Positions 1 through 5,644 of a DNA stretch of 5,644 nucleotides are shown here, piece by piece; the first letter of the stretch is position 1, and each line of letters begins with the position of its first letter. The stretch comes from a virus. Its lineage: Duplodnaviria; Heunggongvirae; Uroviricota; Caudoviricetes. The stretch lies in IMG/VR virus record IMGVR_UViG_2684622552_000005, positions 1-5,644 of that record. One strand, 5' to 3'. The notes under the pieces were generated by a model. It had not been told where the DNA came from, did not search any database, and was given only the letters and a program-made list of their open reading frames with translations. Both the position numbers and the translations under genes were made by a program.

Positions 1-568
1 TATCGCGTCCTCAACAATGAGTTTTGTGATGCGGTGCCTGGTGCCTCCAGGTGACGTTAACCAGTTAACAATTAACGCCGGATACAGAGAATCCACCCAT
101 AACACTGTTTTTGGTTTTAACTGTTCCGCGTGCGCTTAGCCGCATTCACCGCATCACAAAATTCACTTTAAAAAGGGCGGCAGAGCAGTCACGGAGTAAA
201 ACTGATACCGCCAAACGTCACCAGAAAATTGATAACAGAGGGCGTTGCAGCGGGGTTGTCACTTAAGCGTATGGTCAACCTGACAACCCGGTGTCCTCAA
301 CGGGGGAAGGAATAACCCCGCCATACTTACCGCCGCGCCATTTCGCGGATTGCCACAACCGGAAGCGCACGGTCGACGAAAATTTAACGACAGGCTATCT
401 ATGAACCAGCTACCTCGCCGTGCGCTTTCGCGTTATGGTCTGACTTTTCAGGGAAATATCCTTTCAGTAAACTGTCAGTGCCGGATGCTCACCCGTGTCC
501 GGCGCACGCACTCCACCTCACCCGTGGAGAACTCCTTAATTACCAACCTTAGCTTCGTTGGTTAGCTA

Positions 569-787
569 TTAACGCGGGTATGTAATCATTCTGGCAATGC
601 TTAATGCCGCTGCTTTTTCCAGATTGGTGATATCCTGCTCCAGAGAGGACAGATTTTCAGCCTGCTTAGCCCTGGCTTCATTGGCCCATTTCAGATCCTG
701 CGCTGCATTAATTTTCTGGTGCATCCACTCATAAAGTTCATCATCGGTATAGTCTGGCGCGATGATGACGGGTTCTCGTTTCTGCAT
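569..787 (-). CDS. Hypothetical small prophage early-left protein (72 aa)
   Basis: ATG-initiated ORF (plus-strand cat at 785-787); GAGGAA Shine-Dalgarno 5 nt upstream on the minus strand; co-oriented with and downstream of two other small ORFs and the repressor gene. No recognisable motif. Confidence 0.5.
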   Translation of the reverse strand: MQKREPVIIAPDYTDDELYEWMHQKINAAQDLKWANEARAKQAENLSSLEQDITNLEKAAALSIARMITYPR

Positions 788-816
788 ACTGATTCCTCGC
801 GGTGCTGTTTCGCTTA

Positions 817-945
817 TCAGCCGTTAGATTTTGCCGAACTGGAAAGCGCCTGTTTAAATTCGTTGAAGCTGAGAGCTTCTTCGCCTTCGGCAAGACCTTC
901 GAAGTATTCTTCGTAAGCCTTTTCCATGATTGTGTCGAAATCCAT
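817..945 (-). CDS. Hypothetical small acidic protein (42 aa), apparently translationally coupled to the upstream ORF
   Basis: Not in the ORF track (below its length cutoff). Hand translation: MDFDTIMEKAYEEYFEGLAEGEEALSFNEFKQALSSSAKSNG. ATG at 943-945 lies 1 nt after the TGA of ORF 947-1183 (TGAtATG); AGGTGA Shine-Dalgarno 5 nt upstream. The frame stays open upstream to about 1018, so a frameshifted remnant of a longer gene is an alternative. Confidence 0.35.
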   Translation of the reverse strand: MDFDTIMEKAYEEYFEGLAEGEEALSFNEFKQALSSSAKSNG

Positions 946-946
946 A

Positions 947-1183
947 TCACTCACCTGAGTTTCTTTCCAGCCAGCGACGGGCACCATTTTCGGTTTTAAA
1001 CGTTTTGCTTTTGGTATACGTCATCGCGGTGAACGTACCGTCCTGGTTGGGGAACACGCCACATACCAGAGATTCGCTGTTGCCAAGATCGATAGTATCC
1101 ATGCTGACCTCATTTCCCCTTAACGCCGGGGTAGCGGAACAAAAACCTGCTGCATAGTTATTAAAGTTGAACCCTGCCGTCAT
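947..1183 (-). CDS. Hypothetical small prophage protein (78 aa), first gene of the leftward operon
   Basis: ATG-initiated ORF (cat at 1181-1183) with GAGG about 9 nt upstream; lies directly downstream (leftward) of the putative OL/PL region. No recognisable motif. Confidence 0.5.
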   Translation of the reverse strand: MTAGFNFNNYAAGFCSATPALRGNEVSMDTIDLGNSESLVCGVFPNQDGTFTAMTYTKSKTFKTENGARRWLERNSGE

Positions 1184-1288
1184 GTTCTTACGCCTCGGGC
1201 TGGCTACTTAACCCCTGACCACTGCCTGGTAACTCGAAGTATTGCCCTGCATTCTGTGGGGCGGGGTGGGTTGGTATGAAAAGAAGGA

Positions 1289-1325
1289 TACCCATAGGTA
1301 TTTAAAAAGTAAATACCCATGGGTA
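1289..1325. promoter_or_regulatory. Putative OL: two 12-bp palindromic operator sites (TACCCATAGGTA at 1289-1300; perfect palindrome TACCCATGGGTA at 1314-1325), likely overlapping a leftward promoter
   Basis: Seen in sequence: two sites of the form TACC-N4-GGTA with centres 25 bp apart in the 185-bp gap between the repressor gene and the leftward small-gene operon. The same motif family recurs in the repressor/ydaS divergent region. Possible minus-strand -35 TTTACT / -10 TATCCT overlapping the sites (weak call). Confidence 0.5.
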
Positions 1326-1367
1326 ACTTTTTGCGATGTCTTAACTGGTGACTAGTTGTTTGGTGAG

Positions 1368-1787
1368 CTATGATGCGTTTTGTGCTTTCTTTTTACGGAT
1401 TTCTTCGTAGATCATATTGTAATACTGTTTTTTCTCTTCAAGAGTTTTTAATAATTTATCCGCTTCACTTTCTGGCAGTTCGTCTAAGAGATCTAAAAAA
1501 ATACGTTGTCGTGGCGTTAGAACCCTTGTTTCATAACTGGAGGCTGTGTTCGTTGATGATGAAACGATACCATCCATCCATCCCCGGGGTAACCCAAAGG
1601 ACTCTTCGATAATCTCCACCATATCATCAGCGATCCGTTTTTTTCCCTTTTTCCCCTCTGGGTACAACATTCTTGATACATAAGAAGGCTCGCGCCCGAT
1701 CTTTCTGGCCACGTTAACCGCTTTACCATCGCATTTCTCATCACGAATTTTGATGAGTTGCTGTCGTCTAAATTCATATTTGTCCAT
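1368..1787 (-). CDS. Prophage immunity repressor, HTH DNA-binding protein (CI / RacR-like functional analogue; no LexA-like peptidase domain)
   Basis: 139-aa ATG-initiated ORF. N-terminal segment (KAVNVARKIGREPSYVSRMLYPEGKKGKKRI) looks like a Cro/CI-type helix-turn-helix; the C-terminal half is charged and helical (likely dimerisation). Sits divergent from a Cro-like gene and between two operator clusters, the position of a lambdoid repressor. Confidence 0.75.
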   Translation of the reverse strand: MDKYEFRRQQLIKIRDEKCDGKAVNVARKIGREPSYVSRMLYPEGKKGKKRIADDMVEIIEESFGLPRGWMDGIVSSSTNTASSYETRVLTPRQRIFLDLLDELPESEADKLLKTLEEKKQYYNMIYEEIRKKKAQNAS

Positions 1788-1807
1788 AGGTAAATAATAG
1801 ATGCGAT

Positions 1808-1862
1808 TACCGCAAGGTAAACAACCTATGGGTATTGACTTTTGTTTACCTGTGGGTATTCT
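1808..1862. promoter_or_regulatory. Putative OR/PR: three operator-like sites (TACCGCAAGGTA 1808-1819; AACCTATGGGTA 1823-1834; TACCTGTGGGTA 1847-1858) overlapping a rightward sigma70-like promoter (-35 TTGACT 1835-1840, 16-bp spacer, -10 TATTCT 1857-1862)
   Basis: Seen in sequence. The sites share the TACC-N4-GGTA pattern with the OL sites. The promoter hexamers are positioned to drive ydaS (AAGGAG Shine-Dalgarno at 1877-1882, ATG at 1888). The three-site arrangement resembles lambda OR1-3. Confidence 0.5.
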
Positions 1863-1887
1863 TTGCTGTGTTTACTAAGGAGTAGCT

Positions 1888-2169
1888 ATGGAAGAATTAA
1901 GAATATTTCTCAATTCTCTTTCGTCAGATGAACAGCGTATGTTTGCATGCGAGTGTGGTACCAGCATCGGTTATCTAAGAAAGGCATTGAGTAAAGGTCA
2001 AGTGTTAGGGGCATCGTTATGTGTCCTTATTGAGCGAGCCAGTAATGGTGAAGTTACACGTCAGCAACTAAGGCCTTTTGATTGGATGAATATTTGGCCC
2101 GAGCTGGAAGATACCAAAACGTTAACACAACCACTTTCTAGGAGCTTGATTCATGAAAATCAAGCATGA
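1888..2169 (+). CDS. ydaS: YdaS-family Cro-like HTH regulator (93 aa)
   Basis: ATG with AAGGAG Shine-Dalgarno; divergent from the repressor. C-terminal motif IERASNGEVTRQQLRPFDW matches, from memory, the conserved IERAT.GEV...LRPD..W segment of Rac YdaS-family proteins. Its 3' end overlaps the start of the next gene by 17 nt. Confidence 0.7.
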   Translation: MEELRIFLNSLSSDEQRMFACECGTSIGYLRKALSKGQVLGASLCVLIERASNGEVTRQQLRPFDWMNIWPELEDTKTLTQPLSRSLIHENQA

Positions 2170-2578
2170 ACACATCCGCATGGCGATGAATGCCTGGGCG
2201 CATCCGGACGGTGAAAAAGTTCCGGCAGCTGAAATAACCAGGGCTTATTTTGAACTGGGTATGACGTTCCCAGAACTGTATGACGACAGCCATCCGGAAG
2301 CCCTGGCTCGCAATACCCAGAAAATTTTCCGCTGGGTAGAGAAAGACACCCCTGATGCAGTTGAAAAAATTCAGGCGTTGTTACCAGCGATCGAAAAGGC
2401 AATGCCACCTTTGCTGGTGGCCAGAATGCGCAGCCACAGTTCAGCTTATTTTCGGGAGCTGGTGGAGACGCGGGAGCGACTGGTGAGAGATGCTGATGAT
2501 TTTGTCGCAGTGGCAATCGCCGGTTTCAATCAGATGAACCGTGGTGGCCCGGCAGGAAATGCTGTGGCAGTGCATTGA
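2153..2578 (+). CDS. ydaT: YdaT-family protein (141 aa), CII-like regulator / reported toxic component of the Rac ydaS-ydaT module
   Basis: Starts MKIKHEHI, as I recall for E. coli Rac YdaT. AGGAG Shine-Dalgarno 8 nt upstream. Overlaps the ydaS stop, indicating co-transcription. Family assignment is from memory and positional context, not a search. Confidence 0.7.
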   Translation: MKIKHEHIRMAMNAWAHPDGEKVPAAEITRAYFELGMTFPELYDDSHPEALARNTQKIFRWVEKDTPDAVEKIQALLPAIEKAMPPLLVARMRSHSSAYFRELVETRERLVRDADDFVAVAIAGFNQMNRGGPAGNAVAVH

Positions 2579-2649
2579 GTGATAATAGCCATATCGAATC
2601 GCTTCCGGCAACTCGTGAGTAAAAAGATTCGGTATCAGAAGAGGTGAGT

Positions 2650-3720
2650 ATGGCTAACGCCTGGCTCAGATTATGGCATGACATGCCAAATGACCCTAAG
2701 TGGCGAACAATTGCCAGGGTGTCAGGGCAGCCAATTGCAACAGTGATGGCAGTGTATATCCACCTCCTGGTGAGCGCGTCACGAAATGTCACGCGAGGTC
2801 ACATTGATGTCACGACAGAAGATTTGGCAAGTGCGCTCGACGTGACAGAAGAGGTAATTGATTCAATTTTGCAGACGATGCAGGGGCGGGTACTTGATGG
2901 TGATTTAATCACTGGATGGGAAAAACGCCAGGTGCTTAAAGAGGACAACGGTAATATTTCGCAAACCGCAAAATCTCCTGCAGAGCGCAAGAGGGCGCAG
3001 CGAGAGAGGGAAAGAAAGCGGGAACAAAATGGCGATTGTCACGGCGCGTCACGAAATGTCACGCACATGTCACGACGAGTCACGACAGATAAAGATACAG
3101 ATAAAGATACAGATCAAGAAGATCAAAACACTATGGTCCATGGCGTAAAAAACGCCACGAACCAGGCAGGGGATGTTCAGACCGTCAATCCTGGTCAGCC
3201 AGCAGGCACGACACCGGAAGCCGATTCAGCGTATGCGCTGAAAGCCGATTCGGGCGCTGTGCAGCAGGTGATGACCCAAAGGCCGGAACAATCACACCAA
3301 CTGCAGCAGCCTGAAGCCGATTCCGCCATTCAGCGGGAAGCCGATCGGGTAGTCCCGGAAAACACCGGGCTGTCTGTGGGACGAGTGGATTATCCGGATG
3401 TGTTCGAACAGGTCTGGCGGGAGTACCCGTTGCGTGCCGGAGCAAACCCGAAGAAATCCGCTTTCAGTGCCTGGAAGGCCAGATTACGCGAGGGGGTGCC
3501 ACCAGAGGCCATGCTGGATGGCGTGAGGCGTTACGCAAGATACTTGGCGGCTACCGGGAAAACGGGAACGGAATTTGTTCAGCGAGCGACGACGTTTTTT
3601 GGACCGGACCGGAATTTTGAGAACCCCTGGTTGCTCCCGGTAAGCGGCACGAACAACCAGCGTTGTGTGAATCATATTTCTGAACCGGATAACGAAATTC
3701 CGCCGGGCTTCAGGGGGTAA
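2650..3720 (+). CDS. Phage replication initiator-like protein (lambda O-like organisation) with iterons inside the coding sequence
   Basis: The ORF track starts at GTG 2644; ATG 2650 with GAGG 5 nt upstream is the more likely start. The C-terminal region (VFEQVWREYPLRAGANPKKSAFSAWKARL...FVQRATTFFGPDRNFENPW) resembles the conserved C-terminal domain of phage replication proteins. Two clusters of GTCACG repeats and an AT-rich repeat lie within the gene. It occupies the position after cro/cII analogues. Confidence 0.7.
   Translation: MANAWLRLWHDMPNDPKWRTIARVSGQPIATVMAVYIHLLVSASRNVTRGHIDVTTEDLASALDVTEEVIDSILQTMQGRVLDGDLITGWEKRQVLKEDNGNISQTAKSPAERKRAQRERERKREQNGDCHGASRNVTHMSRRVTTDKDTDKDTDQEDQNTMVHGVKNATNQAGDVQTVNPGQPAGTTPEADSAYALKADSGAVQQVMTQRPEQSHQLQQPEADSAIQREADRVVPENTGLSVGRVDYPDVFEQVWREYPLRAGANPKKSAFSAWKARLREGVPPEAMLDGVRRYARYLAATGKTGTEFVQRATTFFGPDRNFENPWLLPVSGTNNQRCVNHISEPDNEIPPGFRG
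2778..2814. repeat. Iteron cluster 1: four copies of GTCAC(G/A) at 10-11 bp spacing (2778, 2788, 2798, 2809)
   Basis: Seen in sequence: cgTCACGaaatgTCACGcgaggTCACAttgatgTCACGacag. Helical-turn periodicity is typical of initiator-binding iterons. Confidence 0.55.
3038..3110. repeat. Iteron cluster 2 (five GTCACG copies at 3038, 3048, 3058, 3069, 3079) followed by a tandem AGATAAAGATAC x2 AT-rich repeat (3087-3110): putative prophage replication origin
   Basis: Seen in sequence. The first 21 bp of this cluster (gcgcgtcacgaaatgtcacgc) are identical to the start of cluster 1, about 270 bp upstream. An iteron array plus adjacent A+T-rich tract inside the initiator gene mirrors ori-lambda inside gene O. 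Confidence 0.55.
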
Positions 3721-3760
3721 GTGTTAATTTCTGGTCATGAGGTAATTTTCAGGAGGGCTT

Positions 3761-4186
3761 GTGGCAAAAGTTTTTACACAAGAAGAGCGGGAAAAAATTA
3801 AAGGGCAGGTTGTTGAACTCGTACGCCAGAGTGGGCGCGAGACGTTACGACAACTGGAAACTAAAACTGGGGCAACAAGATATCTGATGAGCGTTCTGGC
3901 CAGAGAGCTGGTTGCCAGTGGCGATGTATACAACTCTGGTTACGGGTTATTCCCGTCTGAACAGGCGCGTAAGGACTGGCAAAATGCCCGTAAAAAGCTC
4001 TCAAGGGCAAAGCTGAAGAAACCATCTGCGGTTGATCCGGACCTTATCTGGTCATTACCTGACGGAGAAATACGTCGCTACGATAGTTGTCTAAACATAA
4101 TCTGTCGCGAGTGCCGGAAGAGCGAAGTTATGCAGCGCATTCTGGCATTTTATCAGGGAAATGTTAGGTATTTTAGACGTTACTAG
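3761..4186 (+). CDS. Hypothetical protein (141 aa) of unknown function in the slot where a helicase loader is expected
   Basis: GTG start with a strong AGGAGG Shine-Dalgarno 4 nt upstream, 40 nt after the initiator gene. No Walker A motif seen. Contains a C-x4-C-x2-C cluster (CLNIICRECRK). Composition resembles the flanking phage genes, not the AT-rich gene downstream. Confidence 0.55.
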   Translation: MAKVFTQEEREKIKGQVVELVRQSGRETLRQLETKTGATRYLMSVLARELVASGDVYNSGYGLFPSEQARKDWQNARKKLSRAKLKKPSAVDPDLIWSLPDGEIRRYDSCLNIICRECRKSEVMQRILAFYQGNVRYFRRY

Positions 4187-4276
4187 ATTAAAGGGCATTA
4201 GTTCAGATATGCATTGACATTTTCATGGCACAAGGTAGAGCTAGCGTGGTTGTTCGCTTTGTGCCAAGAGTGGTCA

Positions 4277-4372
4277 TTGATAATATTTGGGTGGGTTACA
4301 TCTGTCAATGTTTCAGGTGATATGATATACAAATAGCCAGACTTAGACTGGCATGCTGTTTATTTTTATATT
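4277..4372 (+). promoter_or_regulatory. Candidate promoter(s) for the AT-rich cargo gene: extended -10 TGaTATGAT (4318-4326) and/or -35 TAGACT (4344-4349) with 17-bp spacer and -10 TATATT (4367-4372)
   Basis: Seen in sequence within a 215-bp AT-rich noncoding stretch between the stop at 4186 and the cargo gene start. Hexamer matches are by eye and not supported experimentally. Confidence 0.3.
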
Positions 4373-4413: not shown

Positions 4414-5439
4414 ATGGATACTTTTCATAATATTTTGCTTGAGCACATAGACAGCCTTTTAAAAGAGAGACTTGATTTATCTGGTGACGCTGATATCGAA
4501 AAAGAAATTAATAACCTAATTCCCAAAATAGCCATTGTCGTTAAAAAATCTCTTATTGGCTCGGCCAATGCAATGCTTAGAGAACATCGTTCTCTTTGTG
4601 ATGAATTTGTTGAGAGAAATATTTCAAGATGGGCAGAGGCTTTTGATTTGCTCGAAACACTTATAGTGATATGCACGGAGTCCGGTGAAGAGTTCAATCG
4701 TTCTTATAGACCACAAGCTGCCTCTGAAGAGGATGTGGTTTTTGATTTAGTCGTTCGGCATCACGCAAGAGCTTGCCACATCGCCAACGAAATTTTGTGT
4801 CTCTTAAAGAATGGATTTGCAGATGCTGCCCAAGCGAGATGGCGAGCACTTCATGAGGTAGCGGCCACAGCTATGTTTATAGCAAAGCATGGAAAAGAGT
4901 GTGCTGAGCGCTTTTACTACCATGAAGTGGTTGATTCATATACTGGAATGTTGGAACACAAAAAGTACGAGCACCGGTTAGAAGCAAAAGGTCCAACTAT
5001 TGAAGAAATAGCTGAGTGTAAAGTTCAATTTGATCTATTAATAAAAAAATACGGCAAAAAATATGCAGATAATTATGGGTGGGCATCTTATATTTTCCCT
5101 AACCATAATAAAGTGGGGTTTGGAGCTATTGAGAAAGATGTTCAGTTAGAACACATGCGCCCTTATTATAAGTGGGCGAGTCAGAATGTACACACCGGTT
5201 CCAAGGCAATGAGAAATAGGCTTGGTCTCTGTGAAACTGGTGATGATATATTATTGGTCGGGCAAAGTGATTCAGGAATGGCTGATCCAGCCCATGCTAC
5301 TGCTATTAGTTTGATGCAGATTACTGTGACACTTTTATTCTTAAAACCAACCATTGATCATGCCGTCATTTCAAAAATAATACAGGATTATTCTGATGAG
5401 ATTGGAAATGTATTTCTTAAAATTGATAAGGGTAATTAA
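4414..5439 (+). CDS. AT-rich cargo ORF of unknown function (about 341 aa from ATG 4414; the track start at 4402 is a TTG); candidate accessory / anti-phage protein
   Basis: Long uninterrupted ORF whose base composition is visibly more A+T-rich than the flanking prophage genes. It has its own upstream noncoding region. No transmembrane stretch, P-loop or other recognisable catalytic motif was seen by eye. One R-x6-H segment (RHHARACH, about 4756-4779) is noted only as a weak HEPN-like hint. It lies between the replication module and an IS element, a typical prophage moron/defence-island position. Confidence 0.75.
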   Translation: MDTFHNILLEHIDSLLKERLDLSGDADIEKEINNLIPKIAIVVKKSLIGSANAMLREHRSLCDEFVERNISRWAEAFDLLETLIVICTESGEEFNRSYRPQAASEEDVVFDLVVRHHARACHIANEILCLLKNGFADAAQARWRALHEVAATAMFIAKHGKECAERFYYHEVVDSYTGMLEHKKYEHRLEAKGPTIEEIAECKVQFDLLIKKYGKKYADNYGWASYIFPNHNKVGFGAIEKDVQLEHMRPYYKWASQNVHTGSKAMRNRLGLCETGDDILLVGQSDSGMADPAHATAISLMQITVTLLFLKPTIDHAVISKIIQDYSDEIGNVFLKIDKGN

Positions 5440-5518: not shown

Positions 5519-5644
5519 TGAATCGCCACGGGTTTAACAGACACCTCAGAGTCATTTAAGATGGCTTAAAGAGAGGTGCCCATGAGCGGTAAGCGTTATC
5601 CCGAAGAGTTTAAAACTGAAGCAGTCAAACAGGTTGTTGCTCAA
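5519..5644 (+). mobile_element. Left end of an IS3-family insertion sequence (putative left inverted repeat starting TGAATCGCCACGGGTTT at 5519), truncated by the window edge
   Basis: Begins with TG and is GC-rich, like IS3-family terminal repeats as I recall them. It lies 63 bp upstream of an OrfA-like start preceded by AGAGAGGTG, similar to the spacing and Shine-Dalgarno context I recall for IS3. Exact boundary is uncertain; the right end is not in the window. Confidence 0.55.
5582..5644 (+). CDS. IS3-family transposase OrfA, N-terminal fragment (continues beyond the window)
   Basis: Hand translation MSGKRYPEEFKTEAVKQVVAQ matches the characteristic N-terminus of IS3-family OrfA proteins (K-R-x-[YF]-x-x-E-F-K-x-E-A-V). 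ATG at 5582 with a GAGAGGTG Shine-Dalgarno upstream. Confidence 0.65.
   Translation, partial: MSGKRYPEEFKTEAVKQVVAQ

Follow-up and report, generated by a model that had tools for sequence, protein, structure and literature searches.

The window (the whole stretch of 5,644 nucleotides of phage DNA that was analysed) contains the immunity region of a Qin-type lambdoid prophage, and its features are collected in Table 1. Within this region, the leftward gene of a repressor stands divergent from the gene of a Cro analogue, which is followed by the gene of a YdaT-family protein and by three further rightward genes. On the other side of the repressor gene, ydfA, ydfB, and ydfC are the first genes of a leftward operon that also includes the DicF sRNA. 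Over its full length, the repressor matches PHROG 5736 (phrog_5736), described as 'transcriptional regulator', with an E value of 6e-70; the RefSeq entry for the identical protein is WP_000362155.1, which is labelled 'hypothetical protein'. The Cro analogue scores 25.8 bits against the Pfam YdaS_toxin model, which is below the cut-off of 30, and the YdaT-family protein belongs to PHROG 163, 'CII-like transcriptional activator'. PADLOC assigned neither the repressor nor the three rightward neighbours (replisome organiser, DUF977, and DUF5677) to a defence system.

Table 1. Features of the immunity region, with positions in the window
Feature	Position	Strand	Description and basis
DicF sRNA, leftward operon	175..226	minus	Rfam RF00039, 76.7 bits, E 3e-16
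ydfC (569-787), ydfB (817-945), ydfA (947-1102)	569..1102	minus	RefSeq near-identical loci; Pfam DUF1391 for ydfA
Immunity cassette (OL, repressor, OR, cro)	1272..2140		Mosaic module; lower GC
OL	1289..1325		Two operators predicted by pattern: TACCCATAGGTA (1289-1300), TACCCATGGGTA (1314-1325)
Repressor gene, probable CI analogue	1368..1787	minus	ATG start, 139 aa + stop; longest ORF possible in frame
C-terminal tail of two helices, DicA/GtgR type (codons 91-139)	1371..1517	minus	Presumed dimerisation module; AlphaFold2 and homology
Flexible linker (codons 73-90)	1518..1571	minus	Without Ala-Gly cleavage site; pLDDT<50 at residues 77-87
N-terminal helix-turn-helix DNA-binding domain, mEp043-CI type (codons 1-72)	1572..1787	minus	
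PRM-like promoter	1794..1821	minus	TTTACC, 16 nt, TATTAT; consensus scan
OR	1808..1858		Three operators predicted by pattern: TACCGCAAGGTA (1808-1819), AACCTATGGGTA (1823-1834), TACCTGTGGGTA (1847-1858)
PR-like promoter	1835..1862	plus	TTGACT, 16 nt, TATTCT; consensus scan 9/12; putative function
cro analogue, 93 aa, 'YdaS family' in RefSeq	1888..2169	plus	73% identity to mEp043 Cro, E 4e-40; PHROG 35
YdaT-family protein, CII analogue	2153..2578	plus	Pfam YdaT_toxin 39.6 bits, above the cut-off of 21

The sequence-only reading had approached this locus through the Rac prophage, and this part of it did not hold. The presence of DicF and ydfA/B/C in the window, of dicB and ydfD immediately to the left of it in related genomes, and of the integration site next to rspB identifies the region as Qin-type, not Rac. 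Additionally, the repressor and RacR gave no BLASTP alignment at E<=1. In APEC O78 and 2024CK-00188, the locus is found in a lambdoid prophage integrated beside rspB, with the gene order int, xis, exo, ydfD, and dicB, followed by the window genes (DicF, ydfC, ydfB, ydfA, repressor, cro-like, ydaT-like, replisome organiser, DUF977, and DUF5677) and then by hokD, ydfU, Q, and the lysis genes. In 2024CK-00188, a full head and tail gene set follows the lysis genes, and the prophage looks complete, from int to tail fibres. Positions 1-1140 of the window are 97.5% identical to Qin of K-12, and positions 1200-2600 are covered to at least 80% in 813 of the 5426 complete Escherichia coli genomes.

The immunity cassette is distinguished from its surroundings by its base composition, as its GC content amounts to 0.40-0.42 versus 0.48-0.52 in the flanks. 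The flanks themselves (1-1271 and 2141-4287) show 97.9% and 95.9% identity, respectively, to phage Tritos. This active Qin-like prophage of E. coli LF82 yields phage spontaneously, and the phage forms plaques on MG1655 (PMC9928086). The cassette between them is unlike Tritos, except for 75% identity over the tail-coding positions 1369-1484. This is a classical lambdoid immunity-cassette exchange.

The operators of the cassette were predicted from the pattern TACC-N4-GGTA. With at most one mismatch allowed, six matches were obtained compared to 1.17 expected, and none of 200 shuffles reached six. The layout of three operators at OR and two at OL, together with the consensus and the spacings, is the same in mEp043 and CharmingMan, and the two-site OL pair with its 25-bp spacing is likewise present in mEp043. 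OL lies between the end of the repressor gene and the leftward ydfA-ydfB-ydfC-dicF(-dicB) operon, on the upstream side of the latter. The OL pair, when read on the minus strand, also folds as a hairpin that is followed by a U-run. The PR-like promoter is overlapped by the operator at 1847-1858. In the PRM-like promoter, the -35 element overlaps the operator at 1808-1819, and 6 nt separate the end of the -10 element from the ATG; like that of lambda cI, the repressor mRNA may have a leaderless start.

Domain organisation of the repressor

In the AlphaFold2 model, built on a 15-sequence alignment and with a mean pLDDT of 81.9, the repressor is an all-helical protein. The N-terminal domain contains helices at residues 3-18, 23-30, 34-41, and 54-63, residues 77-87 form a disordered linker, and the tail consists of two helices, 92-103 and 106-138, modelled with pLDDT values of 86-91. 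This agrees with the sequence-only reading, which had described a helix-turn-helix domain followed by a short helical C-terminal region; the C-terminal stretch that it cited, LDELPESEADKLLKTLEEKKQYYNMIYEEIRKKK, corresponds to residues 100-133 of the 139-aa protein. The fold closest to that of the DNA-binding domain is found in the SPC32H Rep protein (PDB 5d50/5d4z), of which only the N-terminal ~90 residues align. In contrast to the repressor described here, Rep is a tetramer of ~199 aa with another C-terminal domain, and the sequence similarity between the two is marginal (E 0.31 with a profile). The DdrO and ImmR N-terminal domains are also among the fold matches, all of which are generic Xre-type domains. 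A PDB sequence search with the repressor or with its family profile gave nothing significant, and no solved structure covering a DicA-type tail was found in the PDB.

Another claim made from the sequence was that the repressor lacks the self-cleavage domain of LexA/CI-type proteins, and the domain search suggested as a check confirmed it. No Pfam family was matched at E<=0.1, and hence no Peptidase_S24, while under the same search the positive controls were recognised: mEp043 CI (228 aa) matched PF00717 at 1.4e-17, and the CharmingMan repressor (225 aa) at 1.8e-23. Both the AG/CG dipeptide and the GDSM motif are absent from all 139 residues, whereas mEp043 CI carries AG at positions 79, 88, and 93 and GDSM at 136. 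Moreover, the all-helical model leaves no room for the S24 beta fold of ~100-116 residues. Neither an S24 domain nor a cleavage site nor the catalytic dyad is present, and self-cleavage stimulated by RecA can thus be ruled out to the extent that sequence permits such a conclusion.

The two ends of the repressor have different relatives. Over residues 1 to ~86, the repressor shares 65% identity with the DNA-binding domain of mEp043 CI, and likewise with that of the CharmingMan repressor, and the recognition region of the helix-turn-helix, REPSYVSRMLYPEGK, is identical between the repressor and mEp043 CI. When 1.84 billion representatives were searched exhaustively with HMMER, 709 clusters were matched, and among the best 150 of these the match was mostly confined to residues 1 to ~80. 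The partners of this N-terminal part in the best 150 clusters were S24-like regions, the DicA-type tail (~8 of the 150), or other short, unrelated tails. Of the 120 closest clusters at 90% identity, 79 carry PF00717 in proteins of 219-242 aa.

The tail, i.e., the last ~50 residues, is related to a different group of proteins. BLASTP aligned it with the tail of the phage Tritos CI (72% identity, E 1e-25) and with that of DicA (33%, E 1e-6 to 3e-9), and pairwise BLASTP gave a weak similarity to the tail of GtgR of Gifsy-2 (27%, E 7e-3 to 8e-5). The motif L-x-L-(F/L)-x-x-L-P-E-(S/A)-E is common to these tails. The NCBIfam model of DicA (PRK09706) matches only residues 86-136 of the repressor, with an E value of 1.9e-5, and over the whole protein it reaches a score of 24.5, against a cut-off of 101. 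Similarly, the BLASTP alignment of the repressor with DicA comprises the tail only, and no HTH_3 match was found in the repressor by Pfam, versus an HTH_3 match at 1.3e-16 in DicA.

A search with the tail profile yielded short fragments only and no full-length proteins. Proteins of 57-69 aa that appeared to consist of the tail only were considered as SinI-style antirepressors and then dropped; they were taken as truncated gene calls, and the one such locus that was inspected contains a full-length 137-aa GtgR-like ORF in the same frame.

The 90% cluster of the repressor has 543 member sequences. Full-length relatives are found at 85% identity in Salmonella and at 51-58% identity in Serratia and Yersinia, and in all three genera they have a length of 135-140 aa and the conserved tail. 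The occurrence of such full-length relatives across genera indicates that the short form is a conserved architecture and not a truncation. Among the 50,697 records of the isolated phage collection, no phage carrying the repressor at >65% identity was found.

The DicA/Gifsy class of repressors

The closest functional precedents come from Qin of K-12 and from the Gifsy prophages of Salmonella. Mitomycin induction leaves the Gifsy repressors, of 136 aa, uncleaved; instead, they are bound and inactivated by small LexA-controlled antirepressors, which are encoded after a dinI homologue, and antirepressors from other prophages can act on repressors of this class in trans (PMC3121763). DicA, a protein of 135 aa without Ala-Gly, is antagonised by Rem (PMC10448788). 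In K-12, the dicBp promoter is not induced by mitomycin C, and it is induced by urea and heat, under which DicA behaves as an intrinsically unstable protein (PMC10448788). Additionally, about 1% of cells switch spontaneously in a manner that is independent of recA and rem and dependent on dicC, and upon inactivation of DicA, either DicF or DicB alone suffices for filamentation (PMC10448788). Tritos, whose CI has a tail homologous to that of the repressor (see above), did not figure among the prophages for which induction by ciprofloxacin was reported, and trimethoprim lowered its production 3.4-fold (PMC9928086). The general principle of such non-cleavable repressors has been known since 2011, and for Qin since 2023.

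With DicA of K-12, the repressor shares the Qin-type element, a gene that diverges from a cro-like gene and precedes ydfA-ydfB-ydfC-DicF-DicB, the similar size, the homologous tail, and the lack of both S24 and Ala-Gly. However, the N-terminal domain of DicA is an HTH_3 domain of the P22 C2 type, while that of the repressor is of the mEp043-CI type without a Pfam match. The operators differ as well, the partner of DicA is DicC in place of the YdaS-like Cro and YdaT found here, and no homologue of the antirepressor Rem was found in the prophage of the window. The Gifsy repressors GtgR/GftR, GfoR, and GfhR of Salmonella (~136 aa) are likewise short helix-turn-helix repressors, in which the tail motif reads LLSLFNQLPEAE compared to FLDLLDELPESE here. 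In their case, though, the tail similarity is weak, and there is no counterpart in the present prophage to the LexA-controlled module of the dinI-gftA kind downstream of the replication genes.

The likeness to mEp043 CI and the CharmingMan repressor concerns the opposite end of the protein and comprises the DNA-binding domain, including the recognition-helix region, and the 3+2 arrangement of TACC-N4-GGTA operators, in addition to the Cro analogue mentioned above. Unlike the repressor, these two proteins have a C-terminal S24 domain with AG and GDSM, and judging by their sequences they should be cleavable with RecA. The CI of Tritos has the same length of 139 aa, the 72% identical tail, and flanking DNA at 96-98% identity, but its N-terminal domain is of the HTH_3 type, and therefore it represents a different immunity cassette. 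RacR of Rac (158 aa) is also short, lacks S24, and is divergent from ydaS-ydaT, and Lemire et al. placed both RacR and DicA in the Gifsy repressor group (PMC3121763); it differs in showing no significant BLASTP similarity to the repressor and in belonging to another prophage and integration site. Taken together, the repressor is an unannotated addition to the known DicA/Gifsy class, with a DNA-binding domain from another family.

Repression, derepression, and alternative explanations

We propose, with a probability of about 0.8, that the ORF encodes the CI analogue, or maintenance repressor, of a lambdoid prophage of the Qin family, a non-cleavable protein of the DicA/GtgR type in which an mEp043-CI-type helix-turn-helix is joined to a DicA/GtgR-class tail where relatives have S24. 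The repressor would bind the five TACC-N4-GGTA operators, probably as a dimer mediated by the tail. By binding to OR, it is expected to shut the rightward promoter, which serves the cro analogue, the ydaT/cII analogue, and the replication genes, and to autoregulate its own promoter. Binding to OL would shut the leftward promoter and thus ydfA-ydfB-ydfC-DicF-DicB, followed by exo/xis/int. As the protein lacks a protease fold, a cleavage site, and the Ser/Lys dyad, it is predicted to undergo no self-cleavage on RecA filaments.

As there is no S24 domain, derepression must come either from an antirepressor or from RecA-independent flipping of the switch. The expectation, raised before from the sequence, that induction would need an antirepressor or another mechanism is supported both by the missing domain and by published experiments, in which the tail class proved non-cleavable. 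In one possible route, a protein antagonist may inactivate the repressor in the way Rem acts on DicA or GfoA on GfoR. In the other, the repressor/Cro switch may flip stochastically or under stress, independently of RecA, as described for DicA/DicC. With regard to the first route, the one solved case is that of SPC32H, in which Ant reportedly engages the N-terminal domains of Rep.

Homologues of Rem, GftA, or DinI were not found by tblastn (E<=1) in the complete prophage copy or in Tritos. Similarly, no convincing LexA box next to a small ORF was detected in the prophage stretch examined, although the scan recovered the known LexA box of Gifsy-2 as a positive control. The absence of such homologues and of a good LexA box leaves a cis-encoded antirepressor unproven; a diverged antirepressor, or one encoded in trans, may still act on the repressor. 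The sole perfect CTGT-N8-ACAG in the stretch examined is located before gnsB and has a GC-rich spacer. A kinship of GnsB with Rem was considered and rejected: the first eight residues (MMNIEEL-) are common to both, but the proteins are otherwise unrelated, no such box is present upstream of rem in K-12, and the N-terminal resemblance is probably a coincidence. Another candidate, a 92-aa protein at the position equivalent to rem (before ydfU), was also rejected, as it has no similarity to Rem and belongs to a PHROG of unknown function.

These results bear directly on a rather unlikely alternative, namely indirect SOS control as in Gifsy, in which a small LexA-repressed antirepressor, encoded by this prophage or by another one of the same strain, would bind the repressor once DNA damage has occurred. 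SOS induction of the prophage would then take place, but through a route other than cleavage of its repressor. The precedent of the Gifsy class, including antirepressors that act in trans, and the homology of the tail to DicA, weak in the case of GtgR, speak for such control. Against it stand the negative searches of the prophage for antirepressor homologues and for a good LexA box, the behaviour of dicBp of K-12 under mitomycin C, and the case of Tritos, which is missing from the ciprofloxacin-induced prophages (PMC9928086).

The sequence-only reading had also suggested that derepression may be lethal through ydaS/ydaT, as in Rac. Derepression may indeed be lethal, but ydaS and ydaT are not the best candidates for the cause. 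Extended to a full explanation, the locus would be a domesticated toxin-repressor module of the RacR-YdaS-YdaT kind, in which the repressor is essential as ydaS/ydaT kill and physiological induction does not take place. We consider this improbable. The YdaT-family gene does exceed the Pfam cut-off, and racR was reported to be essential in K-12 through ydaS/ydaT (PMC5700377 and PMC5700373). However, the locus is of the Qin type and its repressor has no significant similarity to RacR, while the protein called 'YdaS' here is 73% identical to Cro of mEp043. For YdaS and YdaT themselves, roles as analogues of Cro and CII have been argued for or demonstrated (PMC5917428; PMC9986795). In addition, DicF and DicB, placed under the OL-controlled promoter, are the known agents of toxicity upon DicA derepression (PMC10448788), complete prophage copies from int to tail fibres exist, and Tritos, which is closely related, is a live phage (PMC9928086). 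Should derepression be lethal, DicB/DicF or full lytic growth would explain this better than ydaS/ydaT; the prophage looks complete in some genomes, and derepression there would mean lytic growth.

It is very unlikely that a separate protease inactivates the repressor, whether an ImmA/IrrE-type metalloprotease or the host Lon/ClpXP acting on the tail. An ImmA/IrrE-like gene of Tritos is expressed in lysogens (PMC9928086), the fold matches include DdrO and ImmR, and DicA is intrinsically unstable under urea and heat (PMC10448788); nevertheless, the prophage of the window contains no ImmA/IrrE gene, the fold matches are generic, and there is no degron evidence. Hardly credible is the idea of a crippled remnant, decayed by truncation or frameshift from a full-length S24-type CI: the close relatives of the N-terminal domain are mostly proteins of 219-242 aa with S24, and four frameshifted variants of the repressor gene occur in databases, but the C-terminal 50 residues are the tail homologous to DicA and Tritos CI rather than out-of-frame S24, they are predicted with high confidence to form two helices, the length of 135-140 aa is conserved across genera, and the distance of 43 bp from the stop codon to the nearer OL operator leaves no S24-coding remnant.

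Immunity and prophage induction

The conceptual gain from the preferred reading, that of a non-cleavable DicA/GtgR-type maintenance repressor, is small, as the principle is already established. What is mildly new is a natural pair with shared immunity elements and an unchanged operator layout, in which one partner has S24 and the other a DicA-type tail. A comparison of the N-terminal domain joined to the tail with the N-terminal domain joined to S24 could reveal the contribution of the C-terminal module to cooperativity and induction. We raise only tentatively the idea that one immunity specificity exists in two induction versions, one RecA-cleavable (mEp043 CI) and the other SOS-proof (the repressor with the DicA-type tail); at present the odds seem to be against it. 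If true, the tail would act as an interchangeable input module, able to take the place of S24 while leaving cooperative binding to the operators intact; its input would be an antirepressor or a stress signal, and resident prophages would confer an immunity against mEp043-type phages that persists under DNA damage.

About 15% of complete E. coli genomes contain the immunity cassette, and the repressor encoded in it still bears the label 'hypothetical protein'. Membership in the DicA/Gifsy class predicts that these prophages, along with the division inhibitors DicB and DicF that they carry, are not directly responsive to RecA, which is relevant for predicting prophage induction by DNA-damaging antibiotics.

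Leftward operon and repressor transcript

The 139-aa repressor, a CI analogue, is predicted to bind two operators at OL that stand upstream of the leftward ydfA-ydfB-ydfC-dicF operon, which carries the sRNA DicF (Table). As the window begins directly upstream of dicB, this gene lies immediately beyond its left edge, and the leftward target of the repressor is therefore the dicBF cell-division-inhibitor operon. The start codons of ydfA and ydfB are uncertain, and the choice is between longer mechanical ORFs and shorter RefSeq calls. The 54-aa hypothetical protein annotated on the opposite strand is possibly spurious.

In minus-strand RNA, both OL operators pair together to form a 16-bp hairpin (dG -22.9 kcal/mol, z -5.7), which is followed by a U-run, UCCUUCUUUU; of these two elements, only the U-run is informative, because two adjacent palindromic operators can always pair. 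Together, they could function as an intrinsic terminator, ending transcripts of the repressor gene ahead of the ydfABC-dicF-dicB operon. At the other end of this transcription unit, the -10 element of the PRM-like promoter (TATTAT) ends 6 nt ahead of the repressor ATG (1787), which suggests, by analogy with λ cI, that the repressor mRNA may be leaderless.

Table. Features of the window, of the same prophage in NZ_CP150019.1 (L007) and of the related live phage Tritos (L009)
Feature	Position	Strand	Details
DicF sRNA	175-226	-	Rfam RF00039, 76.7 bits
Hypothetical protein	401-565 (within 350-565)	+	54 aa, RefSeq; opposite dicBF operon, between DicF and ydfC
ydfB	817-987 / 817-945	-	Mechanical ORF, 56 aa / RefSeq, 42 aa
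ydfA	947-1183 / 947-1102	-	Mechanical ORF, 78 aa / RefSeq, 51 aa
OL hairpin	1284-1330	-	
PRM-like -10	1799-1794 (within 1785-1799)	-	
Replisome-organiser gene	2644/2650-3720		
GTCACG clusters	2778-2816, 3038-3086		
Tandem duplication	3085-3108		ACAGATAAAGAT
DUF5677 gene	4414-5439	+	345 aa; between DUF977 and hokD
IS3-family element, left end	~5523-5644	+	Transposase ORF from ATG 5582, MSGKRYPEEFKTEAVKQVV...
LexA-like box	L007 34559-34578		TACTGTGTACCAGGACAGT
ImmA/IrrE-type gene and adjoining ORF	L009 36334-38090		Metalloprotease with HTH domain

Comparison with phage Tritos

Both the ImmA/IrrE-type gene of Tritos and its adjoining ORF are expressed in lysogens (PMC9928086), and both are absent from the window's prophage. 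Beyond the window, this prophage has a LexA-like CTGT-N8-ACAG box without mismatch, which Tritos lacks; it is flanked directly by a promoter-like TATAAT on one side and by the start of gnsB on the other. Binding of LexA to this box is doubtful because the spacer is GC-rich.

Replication gene and right end

Within the replisome-organiser gene, GTCACG repeats with a spacing of about 10 bp form two clusters. These are probably iterons of the replication origin, comparable to those in λ O. The gene also contains a tandem duplication of 12 bp, which encodes a DKDTDKDT linker. The DUF5677 gene, low in GC (0.36-0.43), is replaced by a different gene in Tritos. Its product had no match in PADLOC and is probably a moron or cargo. 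Homology of the window to the best-matching genomes ends at 5522, and the IS3-family insertion that follows is particular to the window's source.

Occurrence in phages and bacterial genomes

While the cassette (OL, repressor, OR and cro) is carried by 813 of the 5426 complete E. coli genomes, the repressor, at >65% identity, is encoded by none of the 50,697 records of the phage genome collection. By contrast, DicA, the repressor of K-12 Qin, is present at 100% identity in a phage, PhiR42_1. This pattern may hint that the window's immunity type seldom turns up among free phages.
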